A DNA stretch of 64,000 bases from a virus: positions 96,001 to 160,000 of IMG/VR virus record IMGVR_UViG_3300027763_000027; one strand, written 5' to 3'. A program made the position numbers and the translations under genes. This document shows, piece after piece, positions 28,305 to 36,283 of the stretch (position 1 is the stretch's first letter; every line of letters starts with the position of its first letter). A model generated the notes under the pieces. It was given only the letters and a program-made list of their open reading frames with translations, did no database searches and was not told the origin of the DNA.

Positions 28305-28757
28305 ATGAAGCTAATTAATACCACCTCATATTGTTCTGAAAAGTTAAAAGAAATTATCAAATGGTGTATGCCAGAAGGCGTATTCCTTAAAGACATTAGA
28401 AAGATAGATTTTGGTAATACTAAATTAAATTGGCATGGCAGGGCTTGGGGAAGCATGAGAGTGCATATTGGTGTGCCACGATACGGCAAGTATATTCGTC
28501 CTTATAATACAGGAGGCAGAAGAGGCTATTTAAGTGTTGAAACATATAGCTGGGAAGAAGGTTTAATTGAATTAATTGCTCATGAATTAAGACATATATA
28601 TCAATGGAAAAAAGGTAAGTATTATCATGGTATTAAAAAGATAAGAAAATATAACATGGGTACACGAGCTAAATTATGTGAAGTAGATGCTAGTTTATAT
28701 GCTAAGAGAAAAGTAAGAGAGTATAGAAAAAGTAATTTTAAATTAAATTTGGTTTGA
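28305..28757 (+). CDS. SprT-like zincin metalloprotein
   Basis: IAHELRHIYQ HExxH motif, downstream E. Confidence 0.6.
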   Translation: MKLINTTSYCSEKLKEIIKWCMPEGVFLKDIRKIDFGNTKLNWHGRAWGSMRVHIGVPRYGKYIRPYNTGGRRGYLSVETYSWEEGLIELIAHELRHIYQWKKGKYYHGIKKIRKYNMGTRAKLCEVDASLYAKRKVREYRKSNFKLNLV

Positions 28758-28758
28758 C

Positions 28759-28833
28759 ATAAGTAGTTGATTATTATATAGTTACGTGGGCGGGCTCCCC
28801 GCGCGCGCAAGTCGTTGATAGGTAAGCATTTAC
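28759..28833. repeat. 75-bp paired-palindrome element E1 (extra half site at 28865-28891)
   Basis: ATAAGTAGTTGATTATTATATAGTTAC + 21 bp + GCAAGTCGTTGATAGGTAAGCATTTAC. Confidence 0.85.
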
Positions 28834-28941
28834 ACAACAACAGTAAAAAACTTTAACAGGATTGGCAAGTGTCTGATAATCAGAATCTTATGATACGAAA
28901 AAAGTTCTTGTCATAGTTTAAAAGTGTGGTATGATTAACAT

Positions 28942-29799
28942 ATGGCTAGAACAACAAAACCCGCTCAAAGTGTATACGATTTCGATGTACACCAAGAGCC
29001 ACTCCTCACAACAGACGGCAAGAGGACAGGATACTTCGGGATGGTACGCCGTGATACCCCCGAACCCATGACGCTCGGAGTTTGCACCGAGCAGTATGGT
29101 GTGGTGAAGAATGCAGACCTCGTAACGATGGTCGAAGAGTCGCTAGCGCAGAACAGTATGCTCGCCAATCACAACTCCAAAAAGTTTGTGGTTCGTGATG
29201 GATCCCGTTTCTATGCTAGCTATGACTTCCCTGAGTTCAAAACTCAGTTGAAGCCAGTTGGCAAACGTGCGGTTGGTGATGTGCTTGGTTTGAGATTGAC
29301 TGTTAACAACAGTTATGATCGCTCCAGTCGCGTTTCCCTCTCGCTTGGCTTCCTCCGTTTGGTTTGTTTGAACGGAATGAAGTCGTTGACCAAAGAGTTC
29401 AGCATGACGAAGAGACACACTCTCGCCGTGAATCTGGATTTTATTGGTGATGCATTGGCAAACGCACTCTCCAGTGTTGATACCTCTGTAGCAATCTTCA
29501 ACAGGTTGGCGCAGAAGGCAATCACTGATGAGCAGGGTTTGACATTGCTCACTAAGCTGGAAGAGAAGGCTGTCATCTCTGCTAAGGTGCGCGAAGGCAT
29601 CGAAGCAGTTTGGCGGAATCCTTCTTACGAGGAGGATCATGATCGCAACCTGTACAACTTGTACAACGCCACTACGCAGTTTTTAACTCGTAATGTCGCT
29701 GACGAGCGGTACGAGTATAGCGAGAGGGTCAGCACCGACTTGCTCAAAGTCTTCAGCGGAAAAACCCGCGACGAAGAGCTCCTGAAGCTGGTCGCCTAA
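28942..29799 (+). CDS. DUF932 family protein
   Basis: LGVCTEQYGVVKN, NSYDRS, RLVCLNGM, KRHT, LYNLYNATTQ; visibly GC-richer than the backbone. Confidence 0.85.
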   Translation: MARTTKPAQSVYDFDVHQEPLLTTDGKRTGYFGMVRRDTPEPMTLGVCTEQYGVVKNADLVTMVEESLAQNSMLANHNSKKFVVRDGSRFYASYDFPEFKTQLKPVGKRAVGDVLGLRLTVNNSYDRSSRVSLSLGFLRLVCLNGMKSLTKEFSMTKRHTLAVNLDFIGDALANALSSVDTSVAIFNRLAQKAITDEQGLTLLTKLEEKAVISAKVREGIEAVWRNPSYEEDHDRNLYNLYNATTQFLTRNVADERYEYSERVSTDLLKVFSGKTRDEELLKLVA

Positions 29800-29819
29800 A
29801 CTAAAACGAAACTTTAACA

Positions 29820-29851
29820 GAGGCGGAGGGCAAAACCCTCCGCTTCTTTTT
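29820..29851 (+). terminator. Rho-independent terminator
   Basis: GAGGCGGAGGG-CAAAA-CCCTCCGCTTC then T-run. Confidence 0.85.
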
Positions 29852-29869
29852 GCTTTTTTATTGACATGC

Positions 29870-29944
29870 ATAAGTCGTTATCTATCAAGTATTTACAGCG
29901 CGAGGGACCCTGCGTTTGTAACTCGTTATCTATCAGAGGCTTAC
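29870..29944. repeat. 75-bp paired-palindrome element E2
   Basis: 27+21+27; spacer AGCGCGAGGGACCCTGCGTTT. Confidence 0.9.
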
Positions 29945-29983
29945 AACACTTGACATTTATATTATTTATGTTATAGTTATGAG

Positions 29984-30325
29984 ATGAAAGCAAAGCATAA
30001 AGTATATTATAACTTACATAAGAAGTGTCTTTCTATTATGCTTCGTGGAAAAGTATTAGAGCATAGCACAGAATTTTTTTTGCGTGATGTTGAGTTTAGA
30101 GTGAGTCAAGCAGGGCGCTCCAGGGTTCTAAAGGAACAAAGAAAGAATGTACACGCCTTTGTATGTGGGACTCCAGATGATGGTTGGCCTATTGACCAAA
30201 ATGAAAGAAAGGTAACCTATAATCCTTATAAGTATAACAGCTTTGTTTATTCTGATACCTTTGAACCAGTATATAAAGCAAAATGGGTTGGAGTTATTAA
30301 TAGAGATATTTTTGTCTTGAATTAA
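29984..30325 (+). CDS. Conserved hypothetical phage protein
   Basis: VYYNLHK...GRSRVLKEQRKNVHAFV...YNPYK, widespread phage family. Confidence 0.7.
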   Translation: MKAKHKVYYNLHKKCLSIMLRGKVLEHSTEFFLRDVEFRVSQAGRSRVLKEQRKNVHAFVCGTPDDGWPIDQNERKVTYNPYKYNSFVYSDTFEPVYKAKWVGVINRDIFVLN

Positions 30326-30492
30326 TCTAAAAGTATAGTAAGATTATCTAATGGAAATCACTAAAGCCAAGAAACTAAAGGAGGGCGGTTACGCACTATA
30401 CGCAACTGACCCTAAAACTAAAACCGAAACCCAAGTTGGATATATTGGAGAAGGTCTGACTTTGGAAGCGTGGCTTCCTAAAGGAGTAAAAA

Positions 30493-30879
30493 TTGAAAAC
30501 TCTTGAAGAAACATTTACTAGCAGAGGCTTTAAGTTCACGATGGTTGGTCGTGATGGCGATGTTGCTATCTATAAAAAGCGACTCGATGAACCAGACAGC
30601 GAAGCTTTTAACTATGAAGTGATTGCTATTAAGCGTCACAATGGATATGAGATTGCAGGTGTCAAGATGCCTCCTGCTGAAATGTATCCGTCCGATAGTC
30701 AATGGGGCGATTGGGCTTATACTTGTATTGATCGTGAAGATGCAGACAAGCGATTCGTTCAACTAAAAGAAAAACTATCAGCTTATGTTGCAACATCAAC
30801 TTTAGCTAATGGTGAGAAGCGTGGTCGTGGCCGTCCTCGCAAAATTGATTTGACAAAAACAGAACTTGTGGTATCATAA
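30493..30879 (+). CDS. Hypothetical protein with C-terminal AT-hook
   Basis: KRGRGRPRK. Confidence 0.65.
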   Translation: MKTLEETFTSRGFKFTMVGRDGDVAIYKKRLDEPDSEAFNYEVIAIKRHNGYEIAGVKMPPAEMYPSDSQWGDWAYTCIDREDADKRFVQLKEKLSAYVATSTLANGEKRGRGRPRKIDLTKTELVVS

Positions 30880-31307
30880 CAAAATGACATATAAATGTGC
30901 AGTAAGCGGTGAAGCACTTTCACCAGAGAGAGTTGAGGCTCTGCAAGTCCTCGGCGTTCCAGAGAGTCAATGGACAAAGAAAGAACATAGTCAAACAAAA
31001 AAACTACGAGCTGTATATGCTGGTGACGATGGCAGTAATGACATTGTTATTTGTGATGCAGTAGATGGTGGCTCGATGTTTGATAACGCAGTAGCGTTGG
31101 AGGTAGAAAATGAATCTTAAGTATATCGTTTTGCGAGACGGAATTCGTGTGAGTGAAGATATGCACACGAAGATTGAAGATGCTGAACACGAAGCGGAGT
31201 TTTGGCGTAAAGTCATTCGCTCGTGGCCTGATGGAACGAAAGTTACCATCAAGAAAATCGGCGGATAACTTCGGAGGCTGACATTGAGCTACGGCTTAGT
31301 GTTGATT

Positions 31308-31398
31308 GCTAGGGTCGTCTAACTGGTTAAGACCCCACACTTATAATGTGGTCGCTCTAGATTTGGGCAAAATGTAGGTTCGAATCCTACCCCTAGTA
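31308..31398 (+). tRNA. tRNA-Ile(UAU) with long variable arm
   Basis: Acceptor GCTAGGG/CCCTAGT, anticodon arm CCACA-CTTATAA-TGTGG, T arm GTAGG-TTCGAAT-CCTAC, ~20-nt variable region; no encoded CCA. Confidence 0.8.
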
Positions 31399-31683
31399 TG
31401 TATTATATGTAAGTACTTAATGTTCAACCAATTATTTTTATTGACTATTTTTCTGATTCTTGTATATTAAACCTATGACAAACAAAACAGCACCATTCTA
31501 TGTGATGAATGTGTTCGGTCAAGACCGAGCCGTTATCCTAAACACCTCAATCCGTATGTGTACGCCTAAAGAGACTTGTTCTCTTAAAGAATTGGAGAAC
31601 ATCTCCAAGGCTTTTGGAGTAGAGTTCTTTCAAGTACCAAAACCTTCTAGCTTCCCAGCGAAAGTAGTAGCTTCGTGAAAGAT

Positions 31684-31759
31684 GGGCTTGTAGCTCAATG
31701 GTTAGAGCAGAGCACTCATAATGCTTTGGTTGGGGGTTCAAGTCCCTCCGAGCCCACCA
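31684..31759 (+). tRNA. tRNA-CAT, Ile2-like (lysidine) rather than Met
   Basis: GGGCTTG acceptor, GAGCA-CTCATAA-TGCTT, TTCAAGT loop, encoded CCA. Confidence 0.85.
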
Positions 31760-31886
31760 CTTCTCCTTGTGCGGATTGGATGCTCAACTCTTATAGTAAG
31801 CATGCTGAGATAACTCAAGAAGATGTAGAATGGTATTTAAAAAACAAAAGCATTGACAACAAACAAAGATAGGATAAACTAAAACT

Positions 31887-32273
31887 ATGAAACTTATTAA
31901 ACAAAACCTCGGTGCCCATTGGGTCATCGGAATCAAAGGCAACAAGGACGAGATTGAGCAGTTCCACAATCGAGTCTATAACTGGGGCGGAACAAACGGA
32001 GAGCTTCAATGGATGAGCAACGATTTTGCTTATTTTTGGATTACTCTAGAAAAGTTGGAACGAGTAATGTTTAAGTATGTTATGAATGGCATCACAGATA
32101 AACTTGGTAAGAAGTTTCGTGGTGCAAAAGGTGGATTAAAAGGAGTCGTATCTAATCGTGTCAAGAATACTATTGATAATATTCCAAACGAAACATTTGT
32201 TCGCACAGCACAAGTCGAGGATATATATTCTCTTGGAACAATCTCTGCGGAAAAATTAGATACTGATAGCTAA
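31887..32273 (+). CDS. Hypothetical protein, paralog of 39682-40137
   Basis: YNWGGTNGEL, KGGL, YSLGTISAEK shared. Confidence 0.75.
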   Translation: MKLIKQNLGAHWVIGIKGNKDEIEQFHNRVYNWGGTNGELQWMSNDFAYFWITLEKLERVMFKYVMNGITDKLGKKFRGAKGGLKGVVSNRVKNTIDNIPNETFVRTAQVEDIYSLGTISAEKLDTDS

Positions 32274-32279
32274 ACAATC

Positions 32280-32352
32280 CGCCTAGTAGCCCAATGGCAG
32301 AGGCAAACGACTTAAAATCGTTCAAGTGTCAGTTCGAGTCTGACCTAGGCGA
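32280..32352 (+). tRNA. tRNA-Leu(UAA) with short variable loop
   Basis: CGCCTAG/CTAGGCG acceptor, AACGA-CTTAAAA-TCGTT, GTCAG-TTCGAGT-CTGAC. Confidence 0.8.
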
Positions 32353-32361
32353 AAATCTTTT

Positions 32362-32435
32362 GCTTTCATAGCTCAATTGGATAGAGCAACGGATTTCTAA
32401 TCCGTAGGTTGCAGGTTCAATCCCTGCTGAAAGCG
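32362..32435 (+). tRNA. tRNA-Arg(UCU)
   Basis: GCTTTCA/TGAAAGC acceptor, ACGGA-TTTCTAA-TCCGT, GCAGG-TTCAATC-CCTGC. Confidence 0.9.
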
Positions 32436-32449
32436 TGTAATAATATATT

Positions 32450-33088
32450 ATGATAAGAATACATCCAGTATATTCTTTACGTTTATTAAGGCGTTTAAAT
32501 GTTCCTATTAATACAATTATAGATGTTGGCGTACAATATTCTACTCCATGTCTTAAAAATACTTTTCCAGATAAATTACATATTCTATTTGAGCCTGCTG
32601 CTAATTATTGGAATAAAATAGAAGAATCTTATAAAGATATAAAATATATTCTATATAAAATAGCTTTATTTAAAGAAGATAAAAAAGTTAATTTGAAAAA
32701 AAATGGAGAGCTTTATAGAATCACAGATAATAATGAAATCGGGTTAATAGAAGTGCAAGCTAATAAACTAGACACAATACTTAAGGATACAAACTTCGAA
32801 AAGCCTTATCTTCTTAAACTAGATGTAGACGGAGCAGAACTTGAAATATTAGAAGGCGCACAAGAAACATTAAAAGATTGCTCTACAATATTCATAGAAG
32901 CTCACCCAAGAGATTATTTAGAAAGATGTAATGCAATAGAAAAATATGGTTTTAAATTATTTGATATCGTAGACTTTCGTTATCATGATAATAGACTAGC
33001 TCAATTTGATTTGATATTTATAAAAAAAGATCTTCTACCACATAAAAAACAAAAATTTGATATAACTAAATGGAAAGCGCTAAGATAG
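32450..33088 (+). CDS. FkbM family methyltransferase
   Basis: IIDVGV, FEP, LKLDVDGAELEILEGA, QFDLIF. Confidence 0.85.
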   Translation: MIRIHPVYSLRLLRRLNVPINTIIDVGVQYSTPCLKNTFPDKLHILFEPAANYWNKIEESYKDIKYILYKIALFKEDKKVNLKKNGELYRITDNNEIGLIEVQANKLDTILKDTNFEKPYLLKLDVDGAELEILEGAQETLKDCSTIFIEAHPRDYLERCNAIEKYGFKLFDIVDFRYHDNRLAQFDLIFIKKDLLPHKKQKFDITKWKALR

Positions 33089-33379
33089 CGCACAATAGAA
33101 GGATTCATCAAAATAGTAATTACACATCTAAAATAACTTTTACCAAATATCTAACAGGATAATATAAATACTTGAAATATTTCCTAAATGCCTGTAATAT
33201 AAGTTGATATGAAACATCAAAATAGATTAAGTAAAATACTTGAAAAAAGAATCTTACAAGACGAAGATCCCAAAATGATAGATCAAATAGATAAATTCTT
33301 AAATAATCTAGAAGTTGTTTTTGTTAAATGGGCTAAAGCTCATCCCAATTGGAAAGAATCAGAAGAATAATTAATTACT

Positions 33380-33454
33380 GTAACTGGTTTAGCATAAAGT
33401 AGTTACAAAAGATCCCTCCCTGCCGTCGTAAGTCGTTGACCATCAACGAGATTT
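33380..33454. repeat. 75-bp paired-palindrome element E3
   Basis: 27+21+27; spacer AAAAGATCCCTCCCTGCCGTC. Confidence 0.85.
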
Positions 33455-33502
33455 AACTAAAGATTTTTCTTGTGAAAAAACAAAGCTGTGGTATATTTAA
33501 GT

Positions 33503-33769
33503 ATGAACAAAATCAAATTAGCAATCATATACGCAACCTCATATCTGAAACACTTCGTCCTTTTCCTTTTTGGGCAAAGGTATTTAATCGAATACAAACC
33601 CTACGGCAAGAATGATGTCTATACTTACATCATCGGCAAGCCTTCTTCTCATACCATCAGCAAGGCAGGGAACAAGCTATTCACTAGCTTCTGCTTTTCT
33701 GGTCGTATGGATTCTGGCGTGAAGCAATTTCGCTACGATAGAATTACTGGCGGTCTCTCACCAGTCTAA
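33503..33769 (+). CDS. Hypothetical protein
   Basis: Start MNKIK just after promoter downstream of E3; followed by terminator. Confidence 0.6.
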   Translation: MNKIKLAIIYATSYLKHFVLFLFGQRYLIEYKPYGKNDVYTYIIGKPSSHTISKAGNKLFTSFCFSGRMDSGVKQFRYDRITGGLSPV

Positions 33770-33821
33770 CAACAGAGAGATTAGAGGGTTTATTATTCTG
33801 TTCCCTCTATCCTTCATATAG

Positions 33822-33853
33822 AAAGGGCGAGGCCTAAAAACCTCGCCTTTTTT
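33822..33853 (+). terminator. Rho-independent terminator
   Basis: AAAGGGCGAGG-CCTAAAAA-CCTCGCCTTT + T-run. Confidence 0.8.
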
Positions 33854-33886
33854 ATTGCACATAAACAAAGTTATGTTAAGATAGTT

Positions 33887-34104
33887 TTAGTTCTTCGATA
33901 TCAGAGAAGGTTGACCGCAAGGTTGCAGTTCTGGAAAGTTTCTAATGGAAACATTAGTTATATATAACGGAATGCCAATACTTCTCGAGCGAGTCTGACT
34001 AACTCCATAAGAGGATGAACCTGCCAACGCCCAGAGTCTGAGGCAAATTAAAAGAGCAGGGTATTTCCTTTACGAATCATGAGCGTAAAGGGTCGAAGAA
34101 CTAA
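33887..34104 (+). ncRNA. Candidate structured ncRNA B (~218 nt)
   Basis: TTGCAC-16-TAAGAT promoter; 12-bp perfect closing stem TTAGTTCTTCGA/TCGAAGAACTAA; internal stems with GCAA and GAAA tetraloops. Confidence 0.65.
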
Positions 34105-34280
34105 TTTTTATTACGCCATTTTTCTCTATGATGGCAAACCCAATTTAACAGAGCTTTTTCAAAACCAATATCGTGTCCTGCTTTTTCGCTTTCGATCCAT
34201 TTGTGTTTTAATATCTCTTCGCGTTCTTCCATAAACTTTTTATACAACGCAGAAGATTCAAGTAAACCAGATACCCTCAT
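34101..34280 (-). CDS. 59-aa DUF4032-like protein (not in ORF track)
   Basis: MRVSGLLESSALYKKFMEEREEILKHKWIESEKAGHDIGFEKALLNWVCHHREKWRNKN; GTGTAA motif upstream on minus strand (34289-34294). Confidence 0.75.
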   Translation of the reverse strand: MRVSGLLESSALYKKFMEEREEILKHKWIESEKAGHDIGFEKALLNWVCHHREKWRNKN

Positions 34281-34318
34281 AACTTATATTACACTATATT
34301 GATTTAAAATCAAATATT

Positions 34319-34393
34319 TTATCTCTTTGATAGTTAAGCACTTACAACGCAAGAGTCCCTGTCTTTATAAGTTGTTGATAATGAGAGAGTTAT
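34319..34393. repeat. 75-bp paired-palindrome element E4
   Basis: 27+21+27; spacer AACGCAAGAGTCCCTGTCTTT. Confidence 0.85.
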
Positions 34394-34527
34394 TACTCTC
34401 CCATATCACGAGCATGGTCAGCATCAAGCTCTGCCTGAGTTTCTAAGGCTCGTTCCATAGCTTGATCGTCCCACATTTCTTTTGCCCAGATTTTTAGTGT
34501 TTTTTCGTCATCGAATATGTTCATCAT
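34393..34527 (-). CDS. 44-aa acidic protein, sole gene between E4 and E5
   Basis: MMNIFDDEKTLKIWAKEMWDDQAMERALETQAELDADHARDMGE; AAGGAGGT SD and TTGACA promoter on minus strand. Confidence 0.65.
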   Translation of the reverse strand: MMNIFDDEKTLKIWAKEMWDDQAMERALETQAELDADHARDMGE

Positions 34528-34581
34528 ATTTACCTCCTTTCTTTCTATAGATTATCATATTTTTGTTTTATGTCAACATTT

Positions 34582-34656
34582 TTATTCTGTTGATTATCAA
34601 TGACTTGTGAAGGCAACCTCCCTCGTGCTATAAGTTGTTGATGGTGAATGAGATTT
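34582..34656. repeat. 75-bp paired-palindrome element E5 (between divergent promoters)
   Basis: 27+21+27; spacer GAAGGCAACCTCCCTCGTGCT. Confidence 0.85.
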
Positions 34657-34695
34657 ATTAGTAGACAAAAAAACAATTTCTGATATATTTAAGCT

Positions 34696-35535
34696 ATGAA
34701 AGTAAATGAAATCATCACCGAAAAATTCATCGAAGCCCTCAACAAAGGTGTCATCCCTTGGCAGAAACCTTGGAAAGTTTTTGATCTCTGCAATGGAGTT
34801 TCAAAAAAGAATTATAGGGGGATTAATCAATTTTTGCTACGGATGCTCGCTTCTGATGATTTCTTTTTTACATTCAATCAGATTAAGGAGCTAGGTGGGA
34901 GAATCAAAAAGGGTGCAAAGTCTCACATGGTAGTTTATTACAAATTGCTCAAAACTGAAAGCAACAATGAAACCAAAACTTTTCCAATGATGAGATTCTA
35001 TAAAGTTTTTGGGTTGAGTGATATTGAGGGCATGAAGTGGAAACAGCCCGAAGTTAAGAAGTTGGATTTTTCACCAGTAGAAGAAGCAGAAAAGTTGATC
35101 AACAAGTGCATCATTCAGATTAAACATGGTGGCAGTCGTGCCTGTTATTATCCGCAGGAGCATAAAATTGATCTTCCTCCAAAAGAAAACTTCACCAGCG
35201 TTGAGGAGTATTATTCCACAGCGTTCCATGAGATTGGTCACGCTATGCACAAGGCTACAAGCGATGAAGTGAAGAATGGATTTGGTTCACAGAATTATAG
35301 CAAAGAAGAATTGACAGCAGAAATTTTTGCGAGTCTCTGCCTTAACTTCTGCGGAATTGATTCAGAAAAATGTTTCAACAATTCTGCGAGCTATCTTTCG
35401 AGCTGGCTTCAAGTATTAAAGAAAGACATGAACTTTATTATTTCAGCTTCTAGCAAAGCACAAAAAAGATTTGACGCTTTTATTGGTAGAAAAGAAAGCG
35501 AAGAGATTCCACAAGAAGAAGCTGTAACTGCTTAA
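34696..35535 (+). CDS. ardC: ArdC-like antirestriction protein (ssDNA-binding + zincin)
   Basis: GVIPWQKPW, YRGIN, TFNQ, RACY, YYSTAFHEIGH, YSKEELTAE, SASYLSSW. Confidence 0.9.
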   Translation: MKVNEIITEKFIEALNKGVIPWQKPWKVFDLCNGVSKKNYRGINQFLLRMLASDDFFFTFNQIKELGGRIKKGAKSHMVVYYKLLKTESNNETKTFPMMRFYKVFGLSDIEGMKWKQPEVKKLDFSPVEEAEKLINKCIIQIKHGGSRACYYPQEHKIDLPPKENFTSVEEYYSTAFHEIGHAMHKATSDEVKNGFGSQNYSKEELTAEIFASLCLNFCGIDSEKCFNNSASYLSSWLQVLKKDMNFIISASSKAQKRFDAFIGRKESEEIPQEEAVTA

Positions 35536-35598
35536 GTATTAACTACTTACGCAAGCGGGGTCCCTGCCTTCGTAAGTCATTGATAGTCAATGAGATTT
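35524..35598. repeat. 75-bp paired-palindrome element E6 (overlaps ardC stop)
   Basis: 27+21+27; spacer GCAAGCGGGGTCCCTGCCTTC. Confidence 0.85.
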
Positions 35599-35647
35599 AA
35601 CTGTAAAAAAAACTTGTCACAAGAAAAAAAAGTGTTAATCTAATTCT

Positions 35648-36283
35648 ATGTTCAAAAACAAAAAACAAGCCGAAGAGATTGTAGGTACACTCTCAAAACC
35701 CTCGAAGATGCCTGGATATGCTTATTCAACGCCCGCAAAGCGTTGTCTTATCGGGCAGAAAATGCGGAATGTTGTAGGAAGCATTTGTGCTTTTTGCTAT
35801 GCTCTTAAAGGGCGTTATGTTTTTCCTAATGTTCAGAAAGCCATGGAAAAGCGTTTCGCTTCTCTTACTAACGATTTGTGGGTAGATGCTATGACATACT
35901 TAATCGGCAAAGTTAAGAATCCACATTTCAGGTGGCACGATTCAGGAGACTTGCAAGGTGTGTGGCATATTGAAAAGATCGTGAAGATTGCAAAGAATCT
36001 TCCTCACATTTCTTTTTGGCTTCCAACTCGTGAATATGCTTTCGTTTCAACTTATATCGAACAAGGTGGAGAAGTGCCTAGTAATCTTACCATCCGTTTG
36101 TCTGCTCTTATGATGGATGGCCCCGCACCCGTAGGAATTGCACAACGCCTTGGCTTGTGTGTTAGTGGTGCAAGCAAGTTAGGAAACTTTAACTGCCCAT
36201 CTTCCAAACAAGGCAACAAGTGCGGTGATTGTCGCAAGTGTTGGGATAAAAATGAGTTTGCAATCGACTATAAAAAGCATTAA
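35648..36283 (+). CDS. Phage Gp88-like Cys-rich protein
   Basis: SKMPG, C...CAFCYA, FRWHDSGD, WLPTRE, C...CGDCRKCW. Confidence 0.75.
   Translation: MFKNKKQAEEIVGTLSKPSKMPGYAYSTPAKRCLIGQKMRNVVGSICAFCYALKGRYVFPNVQKAMEKRFASLTNDLWVDAMTYLIGKVKNPHFRWHDSGDLQGVWHIEKIVKIAKNLPHISFWLPTREYAFVSTYIEQGGEVPSNLTIRLSALMMDGPAPVGIAQRLGLCVSGASKLGNFNCPSSKQGNKCGDCRKCWDKNEFAIDYKKH

Follow-up and report, generated by a model that had tools for sequence, protein, structure and literature searches.

The window analysed here, a stretch of 64,000 nucleotides, covers bases 96001–160000 of a 171.9-kb IMG/VR virus record (IMGVR_UViG_3300027763_000027) that is rated 100% complete. DNA searches of the INPHARED phages with the RNA locus described below and with the terminase region gave no match, and the best match of the terminase protein, to Bacillus phages, is only 24% identical; thus the phage has no cultured relative and no host can be assigned to it. 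An early island at 28305–36283 encodes ArdC (an ArdcN and a zincin domain), a DUF932 protein, an FkbM-type methyltransferase, an L5 gp82-like protein and a GP88-like protein among dispersed tRNA genes, and it resembles a plasmid leading region. The tRNA genes lie at 31307–32436, and four tRNAs are the only Rfam 15 matches across the window. A 93-nt tRNA-Ile(UAU) found by ARAGORN at 31307–31399 (plus strand) is unusually long for Ile, and most related loci have the same gene ahead of the RNA.

An RNA gene of 218 nt, as bounded by its terminal stem, lies in this island on the plus strand at 33887–34104, between two small genes. The upstream one (33488–33769, plus strand) encodes 93 amino acids with the C-terminus FRYDRI(T/A)GGLSPV, belongs to no known family and ends about 100 nt before the RNA; it is present in 58 loci. 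The downstream one (34101–34280, minus strand) is convergent and encodes 59 amino acids with a weak match to DUF4032 (23.2 bits, just below the cut-off); its stop codon overlaps the 3′ stem of the RNA, in a position kept in 63 loci, all of the main lineage. No partner protein was found for the RNA: both genes are conserved in the main lineage only and are absent from its other contexts.

The 93-aa gene is closed by an intrinsic terminator (33826–33853), a GGCGAGG-loop-CCTCGCC hairpin (33826–33847) followed by T6, which is kept upstream in most family members. A sigma-70-like promoter (33855–33882) comes next, consisting of TTGCAC (33855–33860), a 16-nt spacer and TAAGAT (33877–33882). The original prediction, a stand-alone RNA with its own promoter behind a terminator, is borne out in both elements, and most loci keep both the promoter and its distance from the 5′ end: agreement with the sigma-70 consensus reaches 8 or more of the 12 positions in 67 of 90 distinct loci, and the −10 hexamer ends exactly 6 nt ahead of the first conserved base of the RNA in 64 of the 90. 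Host RNA polymerase would transcribe the RNA from this early promoter of its own.

The letters of 33887–34104 match their earlier description, including a perfect 12-bp terminal stem (33887–33898 with 34093–34104) and, directly 3′ of it, TTTTT at 34105–34109. The placing of the start exactly at the stem has to be amended, as transcription is predicted to begin at about A33889; the RNA probably starts there, two bases further inside. The 3′ strand of the stem with its U-run (34093–34109) is the likely 3′ end, and a run of at least four T occurs within 16 nt 3′ of the RNA in 61 of the 90 loci with sufficient downstream sequence. Fourteen loci have, in place of the U-run, a tRNA gene (for Lys, Pro or Tyr) that begins 7–10 nt 3′ of the RNA on the same strand, and there the 3′ end may be set by RNase P. 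The ends of the RNA would be sealed by the terminal stem, P1, of 10–12 bp.

The plus strand of 33887–34104 folds with −64.9 kcal/mol (z = −3.9), and none of 200 shuffled sequences folds equally well. Folding energy alone cannot pick the strand, since the minus strand is well folded too (z = −4.5). No open reading frame is conserved across the short and long forms of the RNA; frames of 46 aa on the minus strand and of 17 aa on the plus strand occur in the long form only.

A family of short and long forms and its spread

Loci were first gathered through the neighbouring ArdC gene, and BLAST then revealed the 218-nt RNA in several of them; many of the loci hold instead a shorter relative that has in common with it a core around GCCCAGAGTCTGAGGC. 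Motif scans returned 38 viral and 97 metagenomic loci, together with 89 loci from 185,579 prokaryote genomes. With a covariance model built for the family, R1, the viral and metagenomic short forms gave 95 hits scoring 87–151 bits. The family comprises about 93 distinct copies; the contigs that carry them, viral and metagenomic, number more than 100 and belong to uncultured phages, and each genome searched has a single copy. The short forms (83 distinct sequences) measure about 128–153 nt, typically about 130 nt; the 11 distinct long forms, in two subtypes, are all 218 nt. The long form is a short form with an 84-nt insert (33903–33986 in the window) in the 5′ strand of helix P2. A metagenomic copy at positions 1–117 of L206 (minus strand), which has no family similarity beyond the J4/6 strand, is probably a chimeric assembly or a disrupted copy.

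Among the 185,579 prokaryote genomes an exact 16-mer scan found no true copy. On the 89 matching loci, R1 aligned only 16–29 nt around the searched motif, with the exception of two weak full-length alignments of at most 21.7 bits; because R1 aligns little beyond the motif itself, all 89 are regarded as chance matches. Nearly all members were retrieved with the invariant motif of hairpin P5, so that the invariance of P5 is partly an effect of the search. Two further scans, one with the P5 loop and one with the entire P5 hairpin unconstrained but other conserved flanks still fixed, brought no divergent member. The family has little depth, with similarity above 85% among most copies; many of the covarying cells share ancestry.

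The phages that carry the RNA are not all related. The terminase of one of them (L008) is 89% identical to that of the window, the L035-clade phage (139.6 kb, 66% complete) has one that matches with only 25% identity over 147 residues, and that of the 65.9-kb L048 phage has no match to it. There is no flanking gene common to all contexts of the RNA, and its neighbours in the island, ArdC included, do not accompany it into the other contexts. Since the terminases are unrelated and no neighbour is shared throughout, the RNA gene has moved between unrelated phages and is selected for itself.

The site can also be occupied by a different RNA. Loci L019–L023 have the same flanks, with ArdC 88% identical, and lack the RNA of the window (type 1); another multibranch RNA of about 175 nt is found there. 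This second RNA (type 2) is flanked by that same terminator and promoter on one side and by the same convergent gene on the other (2829–2995 in L019), with further copies in L021 (3463–3630) and L022 (3471–3640) and divergent ones in L271 and L273. It folds with −53.6 kcal/mol (z = −2.6), includes a GCC-GAAA-GGC hairpin, has no Rfam match and is absent from the genome of the window. In L271 and L273 its closing stem is fully compensated and the GAAA loop is changed to GCAA. Both types of RNA begin with the same lineage-specific bases, AUAGUUCUUU in one lineage and GGUGAA-GGUGAACA in the other, the starts compared being those of L048 (112–256, minus strand) with L271 and L273, and of the window (33887–33898) with L019 (2818–2829). 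Judged from these sequences, the terminal stem follows the phage lineage and the core follows the RNA type, and the slot looks like a cassette with interchangeable RNA cores. Swapping of RNAs in one slot is of a kind often seen at arms-race loci.

Secondary structure and loop contacts

Base pairs were counted on a model-based alignment of the short forms (A2), in which P1 has 10 bp, P2 has 5 bp and encloses P3, P4 encloses P5, and P6 has 9 bp. Twenty-four of the 46 pairs change on both sides, against 4–7 when the partners are slid by 1–3 columns, and 93.1% of the cells are paired, against 45–52% in the slid controls; none of 500 shuffles reached any of the observed pairing measures. The original prediction was to fall if its helices did not covary, and the covariation is strong. 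It is heavy in P1, P2, P3 and P6 and is seen in P5 at the outer pair, and P4 shows no variation. The comparison establishes the fold of P1, P2, P3, the outer part of P5 and P6, and it supports a predicted core in the form of a four-way junction (P1, P2-P3, P4-P5 and P6). It also settles the strand, since many positions have G-U pairs (U112-G158 in 71 sequences, for example, or G67-U105 in 60) that would turn into A-C on the opposite strand; the promoter agrees with this. RNAalifold applied to the long forms alone misdraws the 3′ half, because the two subtypes are one column out of register and diversity is low, and the short-form alignment was therefore used for P4–P6.

Of the P1 pairs formed by the 5′ strand at 33887–33898, those of the short forms change on both sides in 7 of 10 cases, and the terminal stem of L048 has an entirely different, longer sequence and yet is paired. 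P2 is formed in the window by UAUC (33899–33902) with GAUG (34014–34017); it is homologous to P2 of the short forms, where 3 of 5 pairs covary and the versions CAAGG/CCUUG, CAAUG/CAUUG and CAGUAC/GUACUG are found. P3 is the hairpin GAGU-CUGACUA-ACUC (33991–34005), with covariation at 4 of its 5 stem pairs; the core of its loop, GACU (33997–34000), is invariant in 83 distinct sequences and was part of no search pattern. P4 (34020–34060) pairs CCUGC (34020–34024) with GCAGG (34056–34060) and encloses P5 (34029–34044), which has a GCC/GGC stem and a near-invariant 10-nt loop, CAGAGUCUGA, where AGUC (34035–34038) is a candidate pseudoknot partner of the P3 loop. The pair adjoining the P5 stem covaries, being U-A in 53 sequences and C-G in 22, and the loop varies at one position only (U, A or C), also in the two loop-free scans with the conserved flanks fixed. 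P6 (34067–34091) consists of CCUUUACG, a 9-nt loop and CGUAAAGG; 8 of its 9 stem pairs covary, and its loop contains the palindrome UCAUGA (34077–34082), a hexamer that stays self-complementary throughout the lineages. The junction is tight, P1 meeting P2 and P6 without a spacer, with AA between P2 and P4 and an AU-rich strand of about 6–7 nt between P4 and P6. P1 would stack directly on two neighbours, P2-P3 to one side and P6 to the other, leaving P4-P5 as the fourth arm.

The insert of the long form (33903–33986) is Y-shaped. Its stem, GAGAAG (33904–33909) with CUUCUC (33981–33986), had been among the predicted helices and is invariant in the relatives. It bears two GNRA hairpins (33914–33923 and 33942–33957), both of which had also been proposed. 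The GACC-GCAA-GGUU hairpin of the window is kept as ACC-GNRA-GGU with a loop of GCAA, GUAA or GAAA; in the other, CUAAUG-GAAA-CAUUAG, the stem is compensated in three variants (CCAAUG/CAUUGG, UCAAUG/CAUUGA and CCAAUA/UAUUGG) and the loop is GAAA, GCAA or GAGA, so that the two tetraloops remain GNRA in the relatives. Within the insert the pairs 24-93, 56-71, 57-70 and 61-66 covary, 24-93 as G-U, G-C or A-U. The Y domain with its two tetraloops would probably dock onto the core.

All six helices named at the outset are present in the sequence, and the relatives back five of them or leave them uncontradicted. The helix CCTTTACG/CGTAAAGG covaries across the family. CCUGC/GCAGG never varies among the long forms and is replaced in the short forms by CCCC/G-N-GGG, itself invariant. 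The composite helix GCC-CAG/CUG-GGC survives in its outer half alone: GCC/GGC is accompanied by the covarying flanking pair, but the inner CAG/CUG has to be dropped, as its middle pair is A-A in long-form subtype B and A-C in L178 and L267.

Do the arms touch each other? The loop cores of P3 (GACU) and P5 (AGUC) are complementary and both invariant, and their pairing shows no covariation. A flanking position gives a fifth pair in two lineages, A-U in L025, L236 and L249 and U-A in long-form subtype B, and the local CAG/CUG helix that would compete with the contact is broken in two lineages. The chance of a 4-bp match between two loops of such size is roughly 1 in 10. We regard a putative kissing contact (GACU:AGUC) as about evenly probable; it would lock the two arms side by side.

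The P6 loop offers a contact of another kind. Its 9 nt are made up of two bases, a 6-nt palindrome and one purine, except in the L035 clade. The palindrome is UCUAGA in most copies, UCAUGA in the window, L011 and long-form subtype B, and UCCGGA in L178 and L267; L162 has UCUAGG, which is wobble-compatible, and the L035 clade has GUCGAC or GUGCAC in an enlarged loop of 13–14 nt with a different layout. L016 departs from the window at three of 218 bases, and two of these make up an AU-to-UA swap that preserves the palindrome. The palindrome has switched independently about four times, and the chance of such a pattern is estimated at well below 1 in 20. Its axis lies half a base off the axis of the hairpin, so that it is not merely an extension of the inverted repeat; because of this offset, and because the hexamer is unable to fold back on itself, intermolecular pairing is the simplest reading. 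Kissing duplexes of UCUAGA or UCAUGA are weak, about −5 kcal/mol, and RNAcofold finds the extended duplex of two copies favourable, which is a weak test, being true of any hairpin. On balance we lean towards a predicted homodimer held together by kissing P6 loops. A coupling of the variable base in P5 to the palindrome of P6 was considered and rejected: UCUAGA is accompanied by U, UCCGGA by C and UCAUGA by A, but the window, which has U and UCAUGA, breaks the pattern; the apparent association is probably due to shared ancestry.

Relation to known RNAs and possible functions

Rfam 15 gave nothing for 33887–34104 at gathering scores, nor at E ≤ 10 within the long form, and for the short forms only a single chance-level snoRNA hit of 21 nt (7.9–8.5 bits, E 5–8). 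By its sequence the family is uncatalogued in Rfam 15, the sole library compared; the original prediction, which had named such a scan beforehand, had likewise been unable to assign the RNA to a known class. Its reading as a stand-alone, multibranch non-coding RNA is supported by the strong covariation, the strand-specific G-U pairs and the conserved promoter, and we have little doubt that 33887–34104 represents a genuine new family of structured RNAs.

Individual candidates were examined as well. No Rfam 15 covariance model of tmRNA, RNase P, 6S, SRP, riboswitches, ribozymes or group I introns matches. A tRNA or tRNA-like RNA was rejected because ARAGORN and the Rfam tRNA model are both empty at 33887–34104, and the predicted loop contact joins arms 2 and 3 rather than 2 and 4. 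A bacterial Y RNA (YrlA) was dismissed, there being no Rfam match and no TROVE domain in the 171.9-kb genome (controls positive). A retron msr-msd or DRT template RNA would share the terminal stem, but no RVT_1 match is found anywhere in the genome. With its filters switched off, R1 scores at best 8.7 bits in the T4 tRNA cluster, at neither rnaC nor rnaD, and a homologue of these was rejected. Identity with GOLLD (RF01998) or ROOL (RF03087) was likewise discarded, there being no covariance-model match and a length of 130–218 nt against the more than 500 nt required.

Several known RNAs are nevertheless alike in part. GOLLD and ROOL are phage or prophage RNAs, often near tRNA islands, that form homo-oligomers through kissing loops and A-minor contacts (PMC12286853). 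The present family is similar to them as a phage RNA in a tRNA island with GNRA loops and a covarying self-complementary loop; unlike GOLLD and ROOL (about 580–800 nt), it measures 130–218 nt and has its own promoter and sealed ends, and the finding of only one self-complementary loop would point to a dimer and not to a cage. Two small stable RNAs of T4 known since the 1970s, species 1 and 2 (rnaC and rnaD), lie inside its tRNA cluster with a few bases between them and a tRNA gene, much as the family RNA does in the 14 loci with a tRNA 7–10 nt downstream. However, T4 rnaC folds with a tRNA-type T arm, which the family lacks, and unlike the T4 pair the family has its own promoter and many copies that are not beside a tRNA. 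To our knowledge, no function is known for the structured RNAs of phage tRNA islands (T4 rnaC and rnaD, GOLLD and ROOL).

The P6 loop recalls the dimerisation initiation site of HIV-1, whose 9-nt loop consists of two bases, a 6-nt palindrome (variants GCGCGC and GUGCAC) and one purine. The 2+6+1 layout is the same, and here too the palindrome is kept through switches (UCUAGA, UCAUGA, UCCGGA and GUCGAC/GUGCAC). The likeness is one of mechanism only, without homology: most P6 palindromes are AU-rich and weaker, the bases on the 5′ side of the loop are not always purines, and the loop of the L035 clade has 13–14 nt. Another phage RNA with paired ends and oligomerisation by loop-loop pairing is the phi29 pRNA, of 120–174 nt, in which a helix is formed between the 5′ and 3′ ends; the family resembles it in its paired ends and in the predicted loop-loop oligomer. 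The pRNA differs in that it uses two distinct complementary loops and serves the packaging motor of small protein-primed podoviruses, whereas the RNA described here lies in the early island of 66–172-kb phages and has no sequence or model similarity to it.

What could such an RNA do? Taken as a whole, the evidence inclines us to the reading of a trans-acting, highly structured, predicted non-coding RNA gene of an undescribed family, which probably acts through its shape rather than by base-pairing with mRNAs. Our best guess is a role as decoy or scaffold, with no binding partner indicated by the analysis: the dimeric RNA would bind a host or phage factor early in infection, and it would belong to an island of tRNA and anti-restriction genes that is exchanged between unrelated phages. 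A specific version of this explanation is an anti-defence decoy, which mimics a tRNA or another RNA target, or an RNA activator, of a host immune nuclease or sensor. It would fit the early island with the anti-restriction protein ArdC, DUF932 and a methyltransferase beside phage tRNAs, the near-identical flanks that carry different RNAs (short, long or type 2), and the transfer of the gene between unrelated phages. This is an argument from context, however, and the RNA resembles neither tRNA nor any family of Rfam 15, the one library searched; we hold this version to be possible but doubtful.

The main alternative to a trans-acting RNA is a module that acts in cis on tRNA transcripts, as their 5′ leader or in their processing: the promoter would drive the RNA together with the tRNAs downstream of it, and the folded leader, with no function of its own, would protect the precursor or guide RNase P or RNase E. 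The 14 loci with a tRNA (Lys, Pro or Tyr) close downstream, the 70 of 101 loci that have tRNA genes, always of the same strand, no more than 2.5 kb away, and the similar placing of T4 rnaC and rnaD would suit it. In the window and most loci, however, the next gene downstream is the convergent minus-strand ORF and no tRNA follows within the first 260 nt, and none of the listed L035-clade loci has a tRNA within 2.5 kb; moreover, the near-invariant loops and the palindromic loop exceed what a leader needs, and in most loci a U-run follows P1. We therefore regard a leader as unlikely. A leader based on the motif TAGTTCTTY was also abandoned, since its other occurrences in the window (37977 and 38526) lie outside a promoter context. 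A ligand-sensing, riboswitch-like RNA or a self-cleaving ribozyme, with the junction and kissing loops as pocket or active site, is very unlikely. The closing stem, the two arms joined by a loop-loop contact and the conserved junction strands form a layout comparable to that of the purine and lysine riboswitches and of small ribozymes, but most loci have no downstream gene to be controlled in cis, no such family is found at E ≤ 10 inside the RNA, and no cleavage-site signature was recognised. Least credible is a DNA-level element (protein binding site, origin or recombination site) or a small protein-coding gene. The well-folded minus strand and the loop hexamers, which are DNA palindromes like restriction sites, could be taken to speak for the former, but the G-U pairs are strand-specific, the helices are kept by compensating changes even with wholly different sequences (L048), the promoter stands at a fixed distance and the axis of the palindrome is off that of the hairpin; for a coding gene, the two small ORFs are confined to the long form.

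Returning to the trans-acting RNA, its most far-reaching version is a swappable cassette in the early anti-defence and tRNA island, in which a lineage-specific promoter and terminal stem would surround different cores (type 1 short or long, and type 2); the core of type 1, a compact homodimer of RNA alone, would neutralise a host factor. We put this forward as a speculation, slightly less probable than the anti-defence decoy. Several handles on these questions are provided by the family itself. The short form of 130 nt is of a size open to probing and mutational tests and, as a dimer, to structure determination by crystallography or cryo-EM; the palindromic loop with its natural compensating variants is a direct handle on dimerisation, and the natural short and long versions are one on the contribution of the GNRA domain. 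Near-isogenic phages with the other RNA in the slot amount to a natural swap experiment. The spread over unrelated phages indicates a function independent of the neighbouring genes. Should the RNA act against host defence, an agent made of RNA alone would join the counter-defence tools already known; and if the cassette reading is true, the family would be a miniature counterpart of GOLLD and ROOL, an RNA-based counter-defence module traded between unrelated phages.
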